64,000 nucleotides of DNA, from the NCBI RefSeq assembly GCF_044324875.1, contig NZ_CP172185.1; one strand, given 5' to 3'. Position numbers and translations under genes: made by a program. The notes under the pieces are model-generated. The model was not told the DNA's origin. It searched no databases and saw nothing but the letters and a program-made list of their open reading frames with translations. Positions 3,869 to 61,833 of this stretch are shown in pieces. The number at the start of each line of letters is the position of its first letter. Position 1 is the stretch's first letter. This stretch comes from Escherichia coli. Lineage in GTDB: Bacteria; Pseudomonadota; Gammaproteobacteria; Enterobacterales; Enterobacteriaceae.

Positions 3869-5128
3869 TTATTCCCCCTGACGCTGGTAGTCGTTACGCT
3901 GCGCGTTGGCGCGGCGTTGGTCCATAATATCGCCCTGACTGGTGGACGACGTGTTGCTTGCTCCACTGGTTGTGGAGGAAGAGGCTGGCGGCAGACGCAG
4001 CAGATTGCTGGCACCGTTATCGCTCTTCGCCGCAGGGGCGTTACCACCTTTCAGCATCTGGTCTAACGGCAGAACCATCAGGTTGCCACCTTTGTCGTTA
4101 ACCAGCACTTTGCGGGTGTTACCCAACACTTTTTCCATCGTCTCGATATACAGACGCTCGCGAGTAATTTCCGGCGCAGCTTTATATTCCGGCAGAAGTT
4201 TAGCAAAGCGCGCCACTTCACCCTGAGCTTCCAGGATGGTCTGGGCCTTGTACGCACGTGCCTCTTCGAGGATACGTTGCGCCTGACCGTTCGCACGCGG
4301 CTGAACTTCGTTGGTATACGCTTCTGCTTCACGAATGTATTGCTGTTCGTTTTCACGCGCGGCAATCGCATCGTCAAACGCCGCTTTTACTTCTTCTGGC
4401 GGACGAGCTGCCTGGAAGTTGACGTCCAGCAGAGTGATGCCCATGTCATACGGACGAATCGTCTCTTCCAGTTCGCGCTGAGTATCGCTACGAATCACGG
4501 TACGACCTTCCGTCAGAATGCGGTCCATGGTGTATTTACCGATAACCCCGCGCAGGGCGCTGTCGGTAGCCTGACGCAGGCTGTCATCCGGGCTGGTCAC
4601 GCTATACAGATATTTTTCCGGATCGGTGACGCGGTACTGCACGTTCATCTCAACGCGCACTACGTTCTCGTCCGACGTCAGCATCACACCAGAAGCTGCC
4701 AGTTCACGCACGGCTTCCACGTTCACTGGTTTGACTTCGTCAATAAACGTCGGTTTCCAGTTCAAACCCGGCTCAACCAGATGGCTGAATTTACCAAAGC
4801 GTGTTACCACGCCGCGTTCGGCTTCTTTAATGGTATAGAAACCACTGGCCGCCCAGATAATGACAATCGCTGCCGCTGCGATGGTAACGACGCGACCGCC
4901 AAGCTGCGGGCGCGGGCCTTGCGATGAACTGCCACCGCCAGATCCGGTGCCTTTACCGCCGCCCAGACCACCGAGCTTTTTGCTCAGCTTGCGGAAGATA
5001 TCATCTAAATCAGGTGGCCCTTGATCGCGACCGCCTTTGTTTCCATTTCCCTCAGAGTTGCCGCCAGGTTTGCTGCTTCCCCACGGGTCGCGGTCTTGTC
5101 CGTTATTACCGGGCTGATTCCACGCCAT
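3869..5128 (-). CDS. hflK: FtsH modulator HflK
   Basis: 419-aa ORF with Gly-rich N-terminus and SPFH domain; hflX-hflK-hflC order. Confidence 0.95.
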   Translation of the reverse strand: MAWNQPGNNGQDRDPWGSSKPGGNSEGNGNKGGRDQGPPDLDDIFRKLSKKLGGLGGGKGTGSGGGSSSQGPRPQLGGRVVTIAAAAIVIIWAASGFYTIKEAERGVVTRFGKFSHLVEPGLNWKPTFIDEVKPVNVEAVRELAASGVMLTSDENVVRVEMNVQYRVTDPEKYLYSVTSPDDSLRQATDSALRGVIGKYTMDRILTEGRTVIRSDTQRELEETIRPYDMGITLLDVNFQAARPPEEVKAAFDDAIAARENEQQYIREAEAYTNEVQPRANGQAQRILEEARAYKAQTILEAQGEVARFAKLLPEYKAAPEITRERLYIETMEKVLGNTRKVLVNDKGGNLMVLPLDQMLKGGNAPAAKSDNGASNLLRLPPASSSTTSGASNTSSTSQGDIMDQRRANAQRNDYQRQGE

Positions 5129-5213
5129 GTTTGTGCTCCATATTTGTTATGCGGTGATCCCTGTTGTCTTTCGACGCCAGAGGATATGACTCCACGCTTC
5201 AGACGCTACGCCG

Positions 5214-6494
5214 TTAGATCAGGTAATCGATCAACGCCGGTTCTTGTTTACAGAGGCGACGCCAGTCAACGATCGGCATACGAACTTGCAGACTTACGCT
5301 GCCGTCCTCCTCCATCCACTCTTTTTCTATTGCCTGAAGCTGATAAAAACGACTTCTCAGACGCCCTTCCTGCGGTGGCAGACGCAATGTATGCTGCGCC
5401 ACCTCGCCGGAAAGCCGCTCCGTCAAAGCCTGAAAAAGCTGTGGTATCCCCGCTCCGGTCTGTGCGGAAAGCCAGACACGGATCGGTTTGTTCTCTTCGT
5501 CCCGATCAATACGCGGTTCGAAATCTTCCAGCATATCGATCTTGTTCATCACCAGCAGGGTTGGGATCTCGTGAGCGTCGATCTCTTCAAGAACCGTATT
5601 CACCGCTTCGATGTTTTCTTGTACACGTACATCCGCCGCATCAATGACGTGCAGCAGCAATGTGGCTTGCCGCGTCTCTTGTAACGTGGCTTTAAATGCC
5701 GCCACCAGATCGTGCGGCAGGTGGCGAATAAACCCTACGGTATCTGCCAACACGGTTTCACCGACATCCGCGACGTCAATACGCCGCAACGTCGGGTCGA
5801 GGGTGGCAAACAACTGGTCTGCCGCGTAGACCCGCGCTTCGGTGATGCGATTGAAAAGGGTAGATTTACCGGCGTTGGTATATCCCACCAGCGAAACAGT
5901 AGGAACGTCGGCTTTGATACGCGATTGCCGCCCCTGCTCACGCTGCTTTTCAACTCTTTCCAGGCGCGACTGTATCTGCACGATGCGATTACGCAACAAA
6001 CGACGGTCGGTTTCGAGCTGGGTTTCACCCGGACCACGCAAACCTATCCCGCCTTTCTGTCTTTCAAGGTGGGTCCAGCCACGCACCAGGCGCGTAGCCA
6101 GATGGCGCAGCTGCGCCAGCTCAACCTGCAACTTACCCTCATGGGTACGCGCACGTTGGGCGAAAATATCTAAAATAAGGCCGGTGCGGTCGATAACACG
6201 ACACTCGCACAAACGCTCCAGGTTACGCTCTTGCGCCGGGCTCAGGGCATGGTCAAAAAGAACGACCGAAGCACCCGTCGCTTTGACAGCTTCCGCAATT
6301 TCAACTGCTTTACCTTCACCTACAAAATACTTTGGGTGCGGCGCTTTACGGCTACCGGTAATCACCTGCAATGCTTCGACACCGGCGGAAGAGACCAGAG
6401 ATTCAAACTCCTGGAGGTCTTCCATATCTTTGTCTTGCGTAAAATAGATGTGTACCAGTACCGCCTGCTCACCAGCATCATAACGGTCAAACAA
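5214..6494 (-). CDS. hflX: Ribosome-associated GTPase HflX
   Basis: 426-aa ORF with G1 motif GYTNAGKST and G3 DTVGF. Confidence 0.95.
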
Positions 6495-6550
6495 GCGTAT
6501 AACCCTCTAAATAGATCAGCGGGGAACGCAGGATCGCTGGCTCCCCGTGT

Positions 6551-6890
<340 letters not shown>

Positions 6891-6963
6891 TTATATGCTT
6901 ATTTGTACTTTGAACCTTTCGATTCTGAAAAAATTGCGCACGATACGTCTCAATTGTACACAT

Positions 6964-7914
6964 TCAGCCTGCGATAGCACCAACAACCTGTAATACTTCG
7001 TCACGCGCTTGTTCTGGTTTTTCACTGTCAAGCCAGTGAACCCCTTCCCAACCACGCAGCCAGGTTATCTGCCGCTTCGCCAACTGTCTCGTGGCGCAAA
7101 CACCTCGATAAACCATTTCATCGTATGAGATTTCGCCTTCAAGGTAAGACCACATCTGGCGATAACCCACGCAACGAATGGAAGGCAAGTCCGTATGCAA
7201 ATCTCCTCGGGCAAAAAGCGCCCGGACTTCTGCTTCAAAACCTGAAGCCAACATCTGATGAAAACGCTGCTCAATTCGTTGATGGAGCAGTTCACGGCTC
7301 GCCGGGGCGATGGCGAACTGATGCACCTGATACGGTAGAGCGTCTCCTGACGTTTGCGTCAGTTCCGTTAAAGTTTTACCCGAAATGAAAAAAACTTCCA
7401 GTGCCCGGGAAAGCCTTTGTGGATCATTTGGATGAATCCTTGCTGCCGCAACCGGATCGATCTCCTGAAGTTGACGATGCAATGACTCCCAACCTTGCTC
7501 TGCCGCCTGTTGCTCAATTCTGGCCCGCACTTCCGGGTCTGCCGACGGTAGCGGCGACAACCCTTCCAGCAATGCCTTGAAATACAACATCGTACCGCCC
7601 ACTAACAGTGGGATCCGCCCCGCCGCGGTGATATCGGCCATTTCCGCCAGCGCATCGCGGCGAAAATCAGCAGCCGAGTAAGCCTGCGACGGATCGCGAA
7701 TATCCAGCAATCGGTGCGGCGCGGCGAGTAACTCTTCAGCGTTCGGCTTCGCCGTCCCGATATCCATCCCTTTGTAAATAAGGGCAGAATCAACGCTTAT
7801 CAACTCTACTGGTAAAATTTTACGCAGCTCAATGGCTAACGCCGTTTTACCGGAGGCCGTCGGCCCCATCAAAAAAATCGCCTTAGGCAGGCTCGCCTTA
7901 CTGATATCACTCAT
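6964..7914 (-). CDS. miaA: tRNA dimethylallyltransferase
   Basis: 316-aa ORF with P-loop GPTASGKT; overlaps mutL 3' end by 8 bp. Confidence 0.95.
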
Positions 7915-45617: not shown

Positions 45618-45620
45618 TAA

Positions 45621-45650
45621 GCAGTCCGGGCTGATTGCCCGGACTGCTTT
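45621..45650 (+). terminator. Hairpin terminator after the integrase gene
   Basis: GCAGTCCGGG-CTGATTG-CCCGGACTGC stem-loop followed by TTTAACTGATTATTTTTC. Confidence 0.55.
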
Positions 45651-56026: not shown

Positions 56027-56440
56027 TGAAATGGCACACTGAATTTGGTCACCTGAACAGAGGTGATATGCTCACCTCAGAACAAGACTGGTGCCCTAAT
56101 GAAAAAAAGAAATTTTAGCGCAGAGTTTAAACGCTAATCCGCCCAACTGGTTGTTGACCAGAACTATACGGTGGCAGATGCCGCCAAAGCTATGGATATC
56201 GGCCTTTCCACAATGACAAGATGGGTCAAACAACTGCGTGATGAGCGTCAGGGCAAAACACTAAAAGCCTCTCCGATGACACCAGAACAAATCGAAATAC
56301 GTGAGCTGAGGAAAAAGCTACAACGCATTGAAATGGAGAATGAAATATTAAAAAGGCTACTGCACTCTTGATGTCAGCCTCCCTGAACAGTTCTCTATAA
56401 TAGGGAAACTCAGGACACGTTATCCTTTGGTCACTCTCTG
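56027..56440 (+). mobile_element. IS911-like (IS3 family) left-end fragment with inactivated orfA
   Basis: Terminal repeat TGAAATGGCACACTGAATTTGGTCACCTGAACAG at 56027; orfA from ATG 56099 reads MKKRNFSAEFKR* (in-frame TAA), then ...[29 protein letters not shown]...IEMENEILK; right boundary approximate. Confidence 0.7.
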
Positions 56441-57310
56441 TGTAGTGGATCGGTAATTCAGGACACCTCATTTTCACTGTTAATGTTAAAAAGTGAAAAT
56501 GAGGTGATGCATGATCAAAACTCGTCGGACTAAACGTACCTTTTCCCCGGAGTTCAAGCTTGAAGCTATCGAACAGGTGGTTAAATACCAGCGTGATGTC
56601 AGAGAAGTCGCGCTGGCACTCGAGCTCAACCCTGACCATTTGCGTAAATAGATACGGTTGTATAAGCAGGAACTTCAGGGTATTGAGCCCGCTGGTAATG
56701 CTATTACTCCTGAACAACGCTAAATTAAGCAGCTTAAAGCGCAGATAAAGCGCCCTGAGATGGAAAAAGAAATACTAAAGCAGGCTGCCGTGCTGATGAG
56801 CGAAATCCCCGGGGAAACTGTCGCGCTAATCACACAGCTGAAAGCAAAGTGGCCAGTGCGGGTTCTTTGTCATTTATTCGGTATTCACCGTAGCATTTAT
56901 TACGCGCAGGTGAAGCGTCCTGTTAATGTGCAAAGAATTGAATTACGAAGTCGGGTGAGGGCTGTCCATGCTCTCAGTCGTGGCGCAGTCGGTAGCCGGG
57001 CAATCAGTCAGATGTTGCGCCATAGTGGCGTTGATGCAGGTCGGTGGCTGGCACGACGACTGATGCGGGAATGCGGGCTGACAAGTCGACAGCCAGTTAA
57101 ACATCACTACCGGGTAAACGAAGACAAAAGTCCGCCATTGCCAAATTTACTGAACCGGCAATTTCACCCCGCCGCACCAAACCGCGTCTGGTGCGGCAAC
57201 ATCAGTTTTATTCGCCTGCAGGACAAATGGTGTTATCTCGCACTCGTTGTTGATTTATATTCACGGCGGATTATCGGTTCAGCCCTCTCATTAACCGCTG
57301 ATGCTGAGTT
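56441..57310 (+). mobile_element. Second IS3-family element fragment (orfA and 5' part of orfB), truncated by the IS66 insertion
   Basis: orfA from ATG 56511 (MIKTRRTKRTFSPEFKLEAIEQVVKYQRDVREVALALELNPDHLRK*), orfB-like ORF 56760-57314 (...RVWCGNISFIRLQDKWCYLALVVDLYSRRIIG...) ending at the IS66 end; left boundary approximate. Confidence 0.6.
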
Positions 57311-57347
57311 GTAAGCGTACAGCGAGGGCCGTATTGACGGGGATGTG

Positions 57348-58886
57348 TTATTCAGCTGGCAGTGCTATGCGCCACGGAAGCAGTTCGCTGACCCGGTTGA
57401 CCGGCCAGTCTGCTATGACGCCAAGCACATGGCGAAGGTAGCTTTCTGGATCCACGTCATTCAGTTTGCACGTCCCTATCAGGCTGTACAGTAGCGCTCC
57501 CCGCTCACCACCATGGCCAGAGCCGAAGAACAGGAAGTTTTTACGACCCAGACTTACCGCCCGCAGGGCATTTTCAGCGATGTTGTTGTCGATTTCCACC
57601 CAGCCATCGTTCGCATAGTACGTCAGTGCCGGCCACTGGTTAAGTGCGTACGCGAACGCCTTCGCCAACTCTGAGTGTCGCGACAGGGTCTTCATCTTTT
57701 CACGCAACCAGCTTTCCAGGGATTTCAACAGCGGTTTCGTTTTTCGCTGACGTTCAGCAAGCCGCTGCTCTGCCGGCATTCCCCTTATATCCGCCTCTAT
57801 GGCGTACAACTGACCGATCTGCTCCAGGGCTTCTTCCGTCAGTGCTGACGGGATGCGGACGTGCACATCGTGGATCTTTCGGCGGGCATGAGCCCAGCAG
57901 GCAGCTTCCGTTATCCCACCATTGCGATACAGCTCGTTGAACCCGGCGTACGCATCCGCTTGCAGCACACCGCTGAAGCAAGCAAGATGAGTCTGCGGAT
58001 GGATGCCTTTTCTGTCCGGGCTGTAAGCGAACCACACTGCAGGTGCCAACGCTGACCCGGCATTGCGGTCATCACGAACATACGCCCACAACCGCCCGGT
58101 CTTCGTCTTCTTATTACCCGGCATCAGTACCTGGACCGGGGTATCATCGGCATGGAGTTTGCCGTCAGTCATGACATAGCCATGAAGCGCCTCTTCCAGC
58201 GGAGACAGCAGCCGGCAGCATGCATCCACCCAGCCCGACAGCAGTGAACGGCTCAGCTCCACACCTTGCCGGCCGTATATTTCTGACTGGCGATACAGCG
58301 GGGTGTGCTCTGCATACTTCGAGGTCAGCACGCGGGCCAGCAGCCCCGGTCCGGCGATACCCCGCTCGATGGGCCGCGAAGGTGCAGGTGCCTGCACGAT
58401 GGCATCGCACTGAGTACAGGCATGTTTTTCCCGTACCGTCCGGATAACCCGGAAGGCGCTACGCATCAACTCCAGCTGTTCGGCGGTATCCTCGCCCAGA
58501 TAGCTCAGTGAACCGCCGCAGTTCGGGCAGCACGGCGCCGCAGGCAACAGTCGCTTTTCGTCACGGGGTAGTGATTCAGGGAACGGCTTACGGATGCGGG
58601 TCTGACGCAACGGACGCTGTACTGCCGGGTCATACACCCTACCAGTCAGCGTATCGCTCTCTTTCTGAAGCCGGTTCAGATCGGCTTCCATTTGTGCGAT
58701 ACGGCGGGAGACTTTTTCGGAACGACTGCCGAAGTTCATCCGGCGGAGTTTATCCAGCTGCGCCTGCAGATGGTCTATTTCGCGCTCCCGGTTGCTCAGC
58801 TTTTCCTGCAGGGCGTGGATCAGCGCTTCCTGTTCGGCCAGGCGCTGTTTCAGCAGGAAGATGTCGTCAGAAGAGATGTCGTTCAT
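57348..58886 (-). CDS. IS66-family transposase TnpC
   Basis: 512-aa ORF with N-terminal leucine-zipper/coiled-coil ([24 protein letters not shown]), Cys-rich zinc-finger region (CPNCGG...CTQCD) and DDE core. Confidence 0.88.
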
Positions 58887-58935
58887 AAGCCCGTATTTTA
58901 CCGGGCTTATTCTGTGACAACCAGGATAAAGAGAT

Positions 58936-59283
58936 TTACAGCATGGTCAGGGAGGTCAGCAGCCGCTTAGGCTGTCGCCAGTCGATACCTTCCAGCAGCA
59001 TCGCCAGCTGCGCCTGTGTAAGGAACACTTTGCCATCACGGGCTGACGGCCAGGCGAAGCGCCCACGCTCCAGCCGTTTGGTCAGGAGGCACAGTCCGTC
59101 ACCGGTGGACCACAGCAGTTTAACCTGACTGCCGCTGCGGCCCCGGAAAATGAAAACATGGCCGGACATGGGATCGTCTTTCAGCGCCGTCTGTACTTTC
59201 GCAGCCAGGCCGTTGAAGCCATTTCTCATATCGGTGATACCGGCAACCAGCCAAATTTTGGTCCCGGAAGGTAAAGGGATCAT
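58936..59283 (-). CDS. IS66 accessory protein TnpB (orf2)
   Basis: 115-aa [34 protein letters not shown]... Confidence 0.85.
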
Positions 59284-59681
59284 CGCTTCAGTTCCTGTAT
59301 CAGCAGAGTCAGGAGCTTTTCGCTGACATTGCCATTGAAGCGGAGCGTCCCGTGCCGGAACGTTACCTCACAGCTGATACTGAGGGTTTCCGGGTCCTCT
59401 GCGAGCGATTCTGGCTGTTCGGCAGCTGCATCGAGAGTCACAGGAAGTAGCTGGGGGCTCTCTGAAGAAGGTAATAGCAGCTTTCCCTCGCGCCATTGTT
59501 GTCGCCATTTGAACAACAGATTGGCGTTAATGCCATTTTCAAGAGCAAGTTTTGAGATGGATATCCCGGGTTCACAGGAGGCAGCAACGAGCTGCTGTTT
59601 AAATTCGGGAGGATAATTAGGGCAGCCTTTTCGCCTGCCGGGAGTCACATTTTTCTGCATATCTGACACTTTGGTTCCCAC
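59280..59681 (-). CDS. IS66 accessory protein TnpA (orf1)
   Basis: 133-aa ORF; 4-bp overlap with tnpB. Confidence 0.8.
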   Translation of the reverse strand: MGTKVSDMQKNVTPGRRKGCPNYPPEFKQQLVAASCEPGISISKLALENGINANLLFKWRQQWREGKLLLPSSESPQLLPVTLDAAAEQPESLAEDPETLSISCEVTFRHGTLRFNGNVSEKLLTLLIQELKR

Positions 59682-59752
59682 TACTTATTTGGTGGACACC
59701 ACTTTGTCTAATTCGTCAGATTCTGACCAGACGGTTCAGGCTGTACGCTTAC

Positions 59753-61833
59753 GCCTGACCGGTGTCTCTGGTGACATATTCCGGAGCTCCGGAGAGAGTA
59801 AAGGTAACGCGATCATCGGCAGAAGCATCTCCATACTGCAGATGCCCGTCGTTGGGGATCATGGCCAGTTTGCCGTAATAGCGATACACATTGTATTCAT
59901 CCTGTGTATAGCCAAAGAAGGACTGATTATTCAGTTGTGAACCCGACAGGCTGACAAACTCGCTGGCAAGAAGATGACTTCCCGTATTATCCAGTTTGTT
60001 CGCGTCAATCAGCAGATTATTACCGGCCGAAATTCTGGCATCCCCCCCTGTTGCACCAACATCGACGCGTGTTGTGCCAGTCAGAAATTTCCGGGTGGCT
60101 CCCTTTTCAGTCGGAACGGCCCATGCCTCAAAACCACCACCGGCAGTACCGCTCCAGGACTTCACATAATATCCCCATCCATTTTCACCTAAATCGCCCA
60201 CTCTGACTGAAACAGAATTTACACCATCAGGTACTGCGACATTCTCAACCGGAATGTATGATTTTGTCTCATTTATACCCTCCCGCTGATTCAGTAAATG
60301 TCCGGTTCTGATGGTGATATCACCGCGGGTGGTTTCGATATTCCCGGAGGTATTAATCACTTCAGCATTCGCGGCACCACTGACATCTTTCTGCATCACC
60401 AGGCTGTAACCCGCCAGCATATCGCCGTGATGGTTCCGGATGGTGCTGGCAAACAGCGAGAGGTTATTGCCCGCATACAACAGTGCGGTGTTAATGACTG
60501 CCCCGGCGACCGTTAACACCAGACTACCCGTCGTGCCGGTAAAACCGTCGAGAGTGATATCTCCCCTGCTGGTCAGGCTGACGTCCCCGCCTGCCTGCAG
60601 GCTGCCGCTGGCATTCATCGCAATCCCGCTGCCGCTCAGTGCCGTGGTGCCGTTGCCGGCGGTCAACTGGCCATTGTTGGTCAGCCTGCCTGCAGCATTC
60701 AGCGTGATACCGTTGCCCTGCAATGTGGCGCCATTGGTAATATCACCCTGGCTGCTGACGGAGAGTTGTTTATTCGCGGCGATAACGCCCTGTGCGGTCA
60801 AACCACGTGTGAGCTTCAGCGTCAGGTTACCGAGTGCAACCAGCTGGCCCGCGCCGCTGAGCGAGACCATTTCAGCAAGCATATCACCGCCGCTGAACAC
60901 CTTCCCGCCGGCGTTGTTCAGGCTGTTCCCTTTTATTGTCAGGCCCTGATTACCCAGCAGCGTGCCGCTGTTGGTGATGGTCTGCGTGTTGACGTTCAGT
61001 TGTGCAGCCTGGAACAGGCCACGGTTGGTCAGACTGTTACCTGTGAGCGTTGCCTGATTCGCCGCCATCACAGTGCCATTACCGGCAAGCTTCGCCACGT
61101 TCAGCAGCAGGTCAGTGGCCTGTAGCCAGCCACTGCCACTGTAGTCCGGCGTGGTGAACGTCAGCTCACCGCCGGAAAGAATCTTGCCACTGTTGTGGGC
61201 CTGCGTTGCCGCGCTGAGCGTGGTTTTACCGTTGCCCTGAATGGTGCCGTCATTAGTCAGCACAGGTGCAGAAAGCGCTGATACGTTCTGACTGAGAAGC
61301 ACACCGCTGGTCTGGTTGGTCAGGGCATTCAGCAATGTAAGAGTCAGCCCGCTGTCGCCCTGCACACGACCTGAGTTGGTCAGCGAACTGGCGGTGATTC
61401 GGTTATCCGCCCCCTGAAGCTGCCCACTATTGCTGATGTCTCTGGCGTTGACGTTTAATGTACCGCCTGTCAGCATTTTACCGTGCTGTTGCAGATTACC
61501 ACTGAGTGTCACATTCAGGCTGTTAACACCACTGATTTCGCCACCGTTGCTGAGCGAATCACCATTCACTTCCAGCGTCTTCGCGCTGATTAATCCCTTG
61601 TTACCCAGCACTTTCCCGGTAAGGCGGGCATCGCCCAGGGCGGTAATTTTGCTGCCGGTGGCAGCAATAACATCGCCACTCAGGGTCAGAGCCAACTCCA
61701 GCGCACTCTGAACAGCACCGCTGCTGGTCAGGCTGCTGGCATCCAGAGTAATGTTCTGCCCCTGAATCCGGCCGCTGTTGGTCACATCTCCTGCGCTCAG
61801 CGTCAGCGAGTTCTGGCTCGATCCGCGCACCAC
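59753..61833 (-). pseudogene. Internal fragment of a filamentous-haemagglutinin / CdiA-like two-partner-secretion exoprotein
   Basis: 694-aa minus-strand ORF made of degenerate repeats (...LTNSGRVQG..., ...LNNAGGKVFSGGDM..., ...GNSLTNRGLFQAAQLNVN...); no TPS secretion domain; reading frame terminates inside the IS66 terminal repeat. Confidence 0.7.

Follow-up and report, generated by a model that had tools for sequence, protein, structure and literature searches.

A family-typical leader hairpin over the orfA Shine-Dalgarno sequence of ISKpn37-like elements, apparently perfected by a template switch at one Escherichia coli locus

How does a perfect inverted repeat come to stand directly in front of a transposase gene, and does it have a function there? 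The question is raised by a stretch of 64,000 nucleotides from Escherichia coli (contig NZ_CP172185.1; here called the window), in which the first-pass annotation had recorded two 13-nt arms separated by 13 nt just upstream of orfA of an IS3-family element. The repeat exists as described, with CCTCATTTTCACT at 56466-56478, the spacer GTTAATGTTAAAA at 56479-56491 and AGTGAAAATGAGG at 56492-56504, and its real extent is 15 bp per arm (56464-56478 and 56492-56506), or 18 nt when one mismatch is allowed. On the plus strand the left arm CACCTCATTTTCACT (56464-56478) contains CACCTC, which pairs with the Shine-Dalgarno (SD) sequence GAGGTG (56501-56506) contained in the right arm AGTGAAAATGAGGTG (56492-56506); the left arm is referred to below as the anti-SD arm. 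The local order is ...GGACA, CCTCATTTTCACT, GTTAATGTTAAAA, AGTGAAAATGAGG, TGATGC, ATG. The ATG of orfA at 56511, which matches the annotated transposase CDS starts of intact copies, thus begins 6 nt past the 13-nt right arm, with the SD sequence 4 nt upstream of it. Perfect inverted repeats of at least 13 bp with a loop of at most 30 nt were expected 0.03 times per window from block shuffles (maximum 2 in 100 shuffles), and the palindrome is therefore not a product of chance.

The sole other perfect 13-bp inverted repeat of the window, AAGCAGTCCGGGC tgatt GCCCGGACTGCTT at 45620-45650, is GC-rich, lies just after TAG and TAA stops and is followed a few bases on by a T-run. It looks like an ordinary intrinsic terminator.

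To which DNA the palindrome belongs follows from the boundaries of the element. The left end was set by aligning the window with three intact plasmid copies in unrelated contexts (L001-L003, from Citrobacter, K. oxytoca and K. variicola). Similarity to the intact copies begins sharply at TGTAGTGGATC (window position 56441) and ends with ...GATCCACTACA. These copies are flanked by target duplications of 3-4 bp (ATC in L001, GAAC in L002, CGAG in L003), the duplication evidence coming from the intact copies only, and they have imperfect terminal inverted repeats with TG...CA ends: the left repeat (IRL) reads TGTAGTGGATC...GGACACC and the right repeat (IRR) GGTGTCC...GATCCACTACA, the two having TGTAGTGGATC....A(A/T)TCAGGACACC in common. 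In the window the IRL, TGTAGTGGATCGGTAATTCAGGACACC, occupies 56441-56467 (plus strand), and the left arm of the palindrome begins with CACC, the inner end of this repeat. The earlier suggestion that the palindrome is part of the terminal repeat was borne out in this sense: the left arm overlaps the inner end of the IRL, and the motif GGACACC is shared by IRL and IRR.

Over 871 nt the element is 97.1% identical to plasmid copies labeled "IS3-like element ISKpn37 family" by PGAP/RefSeq, whose matches start at 56441; the comparison was made with these PGAP-labeled copies. The palindrome occupies positions 24-66 of the element, wholly within it, and starts 23 bp from the junction (56440/56441) between the IS911-like fragment and the element, not at or near this junction as first annotated. 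That the junction created the palindrome, independently of the element, has accordingly next to no chance of being right. The perfect form is indeed known from one junction-bearing locus only, but the palindrome lies 23-65 bp inside the element, copies in unrelated surroundings agree in the first 29 and the last 15 bases of the region, and the alignments, with an imperfect version in all such copies, refute a junction origin. The first-pass annotation would have read absence from other copies as a sign that the palindrome is junction-derived. The perfect form is in fact absent from every other copy, and it is still not junction-derived, since it lies wholly inside the element and goes back to a local, apparently templated perfecting of an imperfect hairpin common to all copies.

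The window copy (56441-57311, plus strand) is the left 871 bp of an ISKpn37-like element, as delimited by alignment with intact copies. Its orfA remnant (56511-56831, plus strand) contains in-frame stops TAG (56649) and TAA (56721), which in translation replace W and E of the intact OrfA. The homology ends at 57311, where ISEc8 (IS66 family) begins on the minus strand (57312-59681, the latter being the start of the last ISEc8 ORF rather than a mapped far boundary), and most of orfB is missing. An IRR was looked for in the window and is absent, only the IRL being kept. With two stops in orfA, truncation by ISEc8 and no IRR, the copy is dead. Relatives are annotated in RefSeq as "IS3 family transposase, programmed frameshift", and the assignment of a frameshift to the ISKpn37-like element rests on this annotation and on the OrfA translation.

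The target into which the element inserted is an IS911-like fragment (56031-56440, plus strand), annotated as a frameshifted partial transposase. Its left end (56031-56110) has a small inverted repeat of its own, TCACCT-GAACAG-AGGTGA at 56049-56066, followed by GAGGTGATATG, a near-perfect SD sequence with an ATG that is out of frame with orfA; the fold of this IS911-like leader, calculated for comparison, was no better than those of shuffled sequences (z −0.68). Directly beyond ISEc8, at 59749-61833 on the minus strand, lies an ORF of 694 amino acids with repetitive, haemagglutinin/CdiA-like sequence, which the annotation of syntenic genomes gives as a pseudogene, a partial "beta strand repeat-containing protein"; the locus has the look of a genomic island in decay. 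E. coli LH50-c (L022) has at the same locus (4436-7100) ISEc8 in the opposite orientation, and after it a DDE-transposase remnant with no counterpart in the window (57312-59681). To judge by this arrangement, ISEc8 copies underwent inversion or recombined with one another once the IS3-family element had been split by the insertion.

What the other copies have in place of the palindrome was studied with left ends from 18 loci, to which left ends from viral contigs, 100,044 species-representative genomes and metagenomes were then added. The viral contigs, scanned with an OrfA alignment, yielded 6 loci, which were useful for subgroup B and too few for statistics. Every independent ISKpn37-type copy has the order CACCTC GAAATC CTGTT AATGTTAA AACAG TGAAAAT GAGGTG. 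This ancestral form, an imperfect hairpin, was present in all 15 of the independent ISKpn37-type copies sampled first, and was found on chromosomes and plasmids of E. coli and in Klebsiella, Raoultella, Citrobacter, Enterobacter, Serratia, Yersinia, Edwardsiella, Mangrovibacter, Buttiauxella, Erwinia and Dryocola. A 6-bp outer helix, to which a G.U pair is added, is followed by three A/A mismatches, then by two pairs and a bulged U, and finally by a 5-bp inner helix with an 8-nt loop.

Among 25 distinct left-end variants, which fall into four subgroups and come from more than 15 genera or species, 24 have the imperfect form, each with an outer anti-SD/SD helix of 5-6 bp, a mismatched middle and an inner helix of 5 bp; the middle is paired only in the variant of the window. 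Subgroups B (Y. pestis, Serratia sp. Ag1), C (Photorhabdus) and D (Pectobacterium, S. marcescens, an E. coli plasmid) have the same two helices with other middles and loops. The outer helix extends to 8-9 bp in subgroups B and D (ACCUCAAU/AUUGAGGU), and subgroup C and the E. coli pRHB34 relative (L011) have a mismatch within the anti-SD. The helices are nearly invariant, the invariance of the inner helix being partly built into the genome-collection scan, whose pattern fixed it. Only one change is two-sided, at the isolated pair 14-37 (T-A vs G-C). Covariation across the 25 variants is therefore uninformative, also because the outer helix consists of an inverted-repeat domain and an SD sequence that are each constrained independently.

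The hairpin is unchanged in relatives that have expanded to 4-9 or more copies per genome, namely in Serratia sp. Ag1 (L033-L041), Yersinia ruckeri (L057-L060) and Mangrovibacter phragmitis (L045-L048). Several of these copies sit at contig ends; they are presumably active.

How the imperfect hairpin became perfect can be read from the differences between the window and the other copies. Alignment of the 18 left ends showed that at 56470-56476 (plus strand) the tract ATTTTCA has replaced the ancestral GAAATC (G>A, AAA>TTT, +A). The left arm thereby acquired five changes within 8 nt, each of which creates a Watson-Crick pair, and over 16 nt the resulting arm CACCTCATTTTCACTG agrees at every position with the reverse complement of the ancestral right arm CAGTGAAAATGAGGTG. 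The closest intact copy differs from the window at 25 positions in 865 nt; when the differences were placed at random, five fell within 8 nt in 6 of 20,000 placements. A clustered multi-base change whose product exactly complements the other arm is the signature of quasipalindrome correction. We propose that during replication a single template switch across the quasipalindrome caused the central part of the left arm to be synthesized anew with the right arm as template, which would have converted GAAATC to ATTTTCA and left a near-perfect stem. The ancestral mismatched tract (a 3x3 mismatch plus a bulge) is flanked by perfect helices, 6-7 bp outside and 5 bp inside, which could have primed both the switch of the nascent strand and its return, and the ancestral segment is predicted to fold as single-stranded DNA (−7.9 kcal/mol, z −4.2).

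The alignment also placed a 1-nt deletion at 56491-56492 (plus strand; ancestral AAAACAG > AAAA-AG), for which the template switch does not account and which leaves G56479 unpaired. A separate event would have removed this C from the right arm, either before or after the switch. Loss of the C lowers the predicted single-strand stability, from −19.5 kcal/mol in the inferred intermediate to −15.7 kcal/mol in the window.

A search of 5,426 complete E. coli genomes found the derived arm in 41 records, every one of them on a chromosome and with 100% identity; the ancestral form is present in about 464 E. coli records. The junction between the IS911-like fragment and the element occurs in exactly 41 genomes, the same number as those carrying the derived arm. 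Four genomes that were inspected (L014, L020, L021 and L022) have the same PhoX / IS911 fragment / IS / ISEc8 locus with the same junction sequence, and three metagenome contigs with the derived arm have the identical junction. In 72,556 plasmids the best match was 96.3% over 319 nt. Four E. coli plasmid records at 95% identity were considered as intermediates and rejected, as they carry an unrelated point variant, AACATC.

The 5,426 complete E. coli genomes, the 72,556 plasmids and 241 million metagenome records contained neither a mobile copy with the derived arm nor a related donor nor an intermediate that still has the C; the metagenome records yielded the same locus only. This bears on whether the perfect arm was gained by recombination or gene conversion from a related element naturally carrying ATTTTCA. 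IS copies do recombine, the family is diverse, and the pattern used for the genome collection could not have matched such a donor. The changed tract, on the other hand, measures 7 nt, has identical sequence on either side and complements the neighbouring arm exactly, and together with the failure to find a donor this makes conversion a very improbable origin. As judged by comparison of the sequences, the perfect form is the product of a template switch and was derived once. Its distribution indicates a single origin followed by vertical inheritance. The copy either lacked function already or lost it later, so that no role of its own falls to the perfect form, which is just passed on at one chromosomal locus.

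If the perfect form is an accident of one locus, the question of function is one about the imperfect hairpin. In the predicted minimum free energy (MFE) structure of all four subgroups the SD sequence is paired, through the anti-SD/SD helix. For leaders starting at the end of the element, freeing the SD (GAGGU) is predicted to cost 6.2-14.1 kcal/mol (13.8 in the window, 8.5 in ISKpn37). For subgroups A and B none of 200 shuffles matched the local RNA fold (z −3.3 to −4.2), and for Pectobacterium hardly any did (z −3.05). In Photorhabdus (subgroup C) and in L011, both of which have the anti-SD mismatch, the local fold was not better than shuffles (z about −1). When 88 nt are folded, the ancestral structure does not stand out (z −1.4). 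An Rfam search with the hairpin gave only chance matches to a plant miRNA hairpin, far below threshold.

These predictions are consistent with a hairpin that holds down translation of orfA and orfAB by sequestering the SD: CACCUC and GAGGUG would pair the inner end of the IRL with the SD, GAAAUC would stand opposite UGAAAAU in the mismatched middle, and the inner helix CUGUU/AACAG would be closed by the 8-nt loop. Most likely the conserved imperfect hairpin limits orfA translation in this manner, as has been suggested for IS10 and IS50 and demonstrated for IS200. The first-pass annotation had thought of a structure limiting read-through into the transposase gene. This is plausible at the level of translation, the SD being in the stem, and not at the level of transcription.

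An intrinsic terminator that blocks transcription before the transposase gene was nevertheless worth considering, as the window version is a strong hairpin upstream of orfA (−23 kcal/mol over 53 nt) and as IS200 has a terminator at its left end (PMC4513863). But the stem is followed by GAUGCAUGAUCAAAAC, which is no U-tract, and there is no T-run after 56506; a terminator scan of the window and an intact copy found no terminator-like site at the hairpin; the stem is AU-rich in the middle and in its ancestral form interrupted; and the 3' arm of the supposed terminator is the SD itself, 4 nt from the ATG. We give this explanation only a very slim chance.

The palindrome could also act as DNA, as a site for OrfAB/OrfA or a host factor that binds as a dimer, or it could be an IRL domain beside an unrelated SD with incidental complementarity, the RNA hairpin then having no regulatory role. 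GGACACC is present in both IRL and IRR, the ends of IS3-family elements carry an inner protein-binding domain (PMC3219604), GAGGTGAT can be read as no more than an SD close to the consensus, covariation is not convincing, and subgroup C tolerates a mismatch in the anti-SD. Against this stands that complementarity to the SD reaches beyond the shared inverted repeat, through the left-specific CACC+TC and, in subgroups B and D, through AAT/ATT, which stretch it to 8-9 bp, and that the same two-helix architecture is the MFE structure in four subgroups with differing loops and middles. Nor does the IRR have a symmetric partner. We regard a purely DNA-level or incidental origin of the complementarity as unlikely.

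Sequestration of the SD would be selective if the element's own mRNA started downstream of the anti-SD arm. The loop and inner stem contain a candidate extended −10 element (TG-n-TAATGT), TGTTAATGT, at 56478-56486 on the plus strand, with a predicted start near 56493. Among the 25 variants of the four subgroups the sequence here is TGTTAAT(G/T)T, in which TG, TA and the final T are invariant and TGTTAAT and the next T invariant or nearly so. TGTTAA occurs in tandem (TGTTAA-TGTTAA) at 56478-56489, and TGTTAAT is kept across four IS subgroups that elsewhere differ by about 30%. Since structure alone does not explain this invariance, TGTTAAT is a candidate for an extended −10 promoter or for a protein site. 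The earlier annotation had linked the palindrome to a promoter: the loop does hold the sole plausible promoter element, the invariant TGnTAnnnT, but a strict scan for the sigma-70 consensus, in the window and one intact copy, found no promoter at the hairpin site.

If TGnTAnnnT is the native promoter, the mRNA would start near position 52 of the element (about 56493), inside the right arm. Opening of the SD in a leader starting there is predicted to cost 1.9-4.3 kcal/mol, such a hypothetical short leader still pairing the SD weakly with downstream codons. The element's own mRNA, lacking the 5' arm, would then escape the block, and transcripts that come in from neighbouring genes would form the hairpin and mask the SD. 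Because the consensus scan finds no promoter, a start near 56493 is only a guess, and the selectivity for outside transcripts is inferred from it. For a promoter at the circle junction, with −35 in the IRR and −10 in the IRL, no convincing pair was seen by eye; transcripts from such a promoter would also carry the hairpin, which is a point against selective read-through. The related IS2 has a weak extended −10 promoter just inside the IRL (PMC3219604).

Taken together, we think it probable that the palindrome is a family-typical leader stem-loop over the SD of orfA, that it was perfected once by a template switch and that its imperfect form most likely limits translation. The analysis fixes 56441 as the left end of the ISKpn37-like element, defines the leader hairpin that is conserved in this IS group and guards against mistaking a conspicuous perfect palindrome for an artefact of the junction, for a terminator or for a regulatory element of a new type. 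The leader hairpin of the ISKpn37 group appears to be undescribed; the papers that name ISKpn37 are, by their titles and abstracts, surveys of resistance and plasmid genomics. A further idea, to which we attach little probability, is that the transposase-binding inner domain of the IRL doubles as the anti-SD (CACCUC, identical to the 3' end of 16S rRNA), that template switching may harden such quasipalindromes and that the perfect stem helped to inactivate the window copy before its decay. If true, one short sequence would couple end recognition, promoter placement and translational insulation, and template switching could silence or tune an IS copy in a single step.

Davis, Simons and Kleckner are said to have put forward in 1985 for IS10, and Krebs/Schulz and Reznikoff for IS50, models of protection against activation by outside transcription, and the review of Mahillon and Chandler from 1998 reportedly lists repeats that sequester the ribosome binding site in several insertion sequences. 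The read-through-selective logic of IS10 and IS50 is that only transcripts starting upstream contain both arms. [quoted passage not shown] Unlike IS10 and IS50, which belong to the IS4 family, ISKpn37 is an IS3-family element, its 5' arm is supplied by the terminal repeat, at the inner end, and no antisense RNA is known. For both IS10 and IS50, structures that sequester the SD have been proposed (10.1101/2025.01.24.634351).

For IS200, toeprinting and mutagenesis showed that a stem-loop in the tnpA 5'-UTR sequesters the SD and represses translation (PMC4513863). There, too, an inverted repeat at the left end gives rise to an RNA hairpin that pairs the SD, a pairing that for ISKpn37 is predicted. 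The IS200 hairpin differs in being constitutive, as it sits in the element's own mRNA, and in being accompanied by a separate terminator hairpin and the antisense RNA art200, none of which is evident in ISKpn37. With the left ends of IS2 and IS911 the ISKpn37-like elements share TG...CA ends, duplications of 3-4 bp, orfA and orfB, with a programmed frameshift according to the annotation of relatives, and a candidate weak extended −10 inside the IRL. IS2 and IS911 have a weak P_IRL, a bipartite inverted repeat and a junction promoter (PMC3219604); the ISKpn37 promoter is a candidate only, its junction offering no −35/−10 pair that convinces by eye.

The perfecting of the stem belongs to a different field, in which Ripley reportedly described, in 1982, template-switch mutations associated with quasipalindromes. 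Such mutations are well studied in E. coli, at the thyA hotspot and with lacZ quasipalindrome reporters (PMC7202029), and template switching can create or perfect RNA hairpins (10.1101/2021.04.15.439925). The window case differs from the assayed mutations in being natural, fixed, located in a regulatory hairpin of an insertion sequence and deduced from comparative data, and in the accompanying 1-nt deletion. As in the known cases, a single change of several nucleotides appears to have perfected an imperfect repeat, the bases gained exactly complement the opposite arm, and perfect helices on either side would supply the switch points. The window copy would thus provide a clear case from nature of a quasipalindrome correction, five changes in extent, that became fixed in a bacterial lineage, and such clusters of changes can be misread as separate substitutions or as the outcome of selection on an RNA fold. 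The palindrome, though real and non-random, is ordinary: it combines a leader hairpin and a quasipalindrome correction, both of known kinds, and holds nothing outside them.
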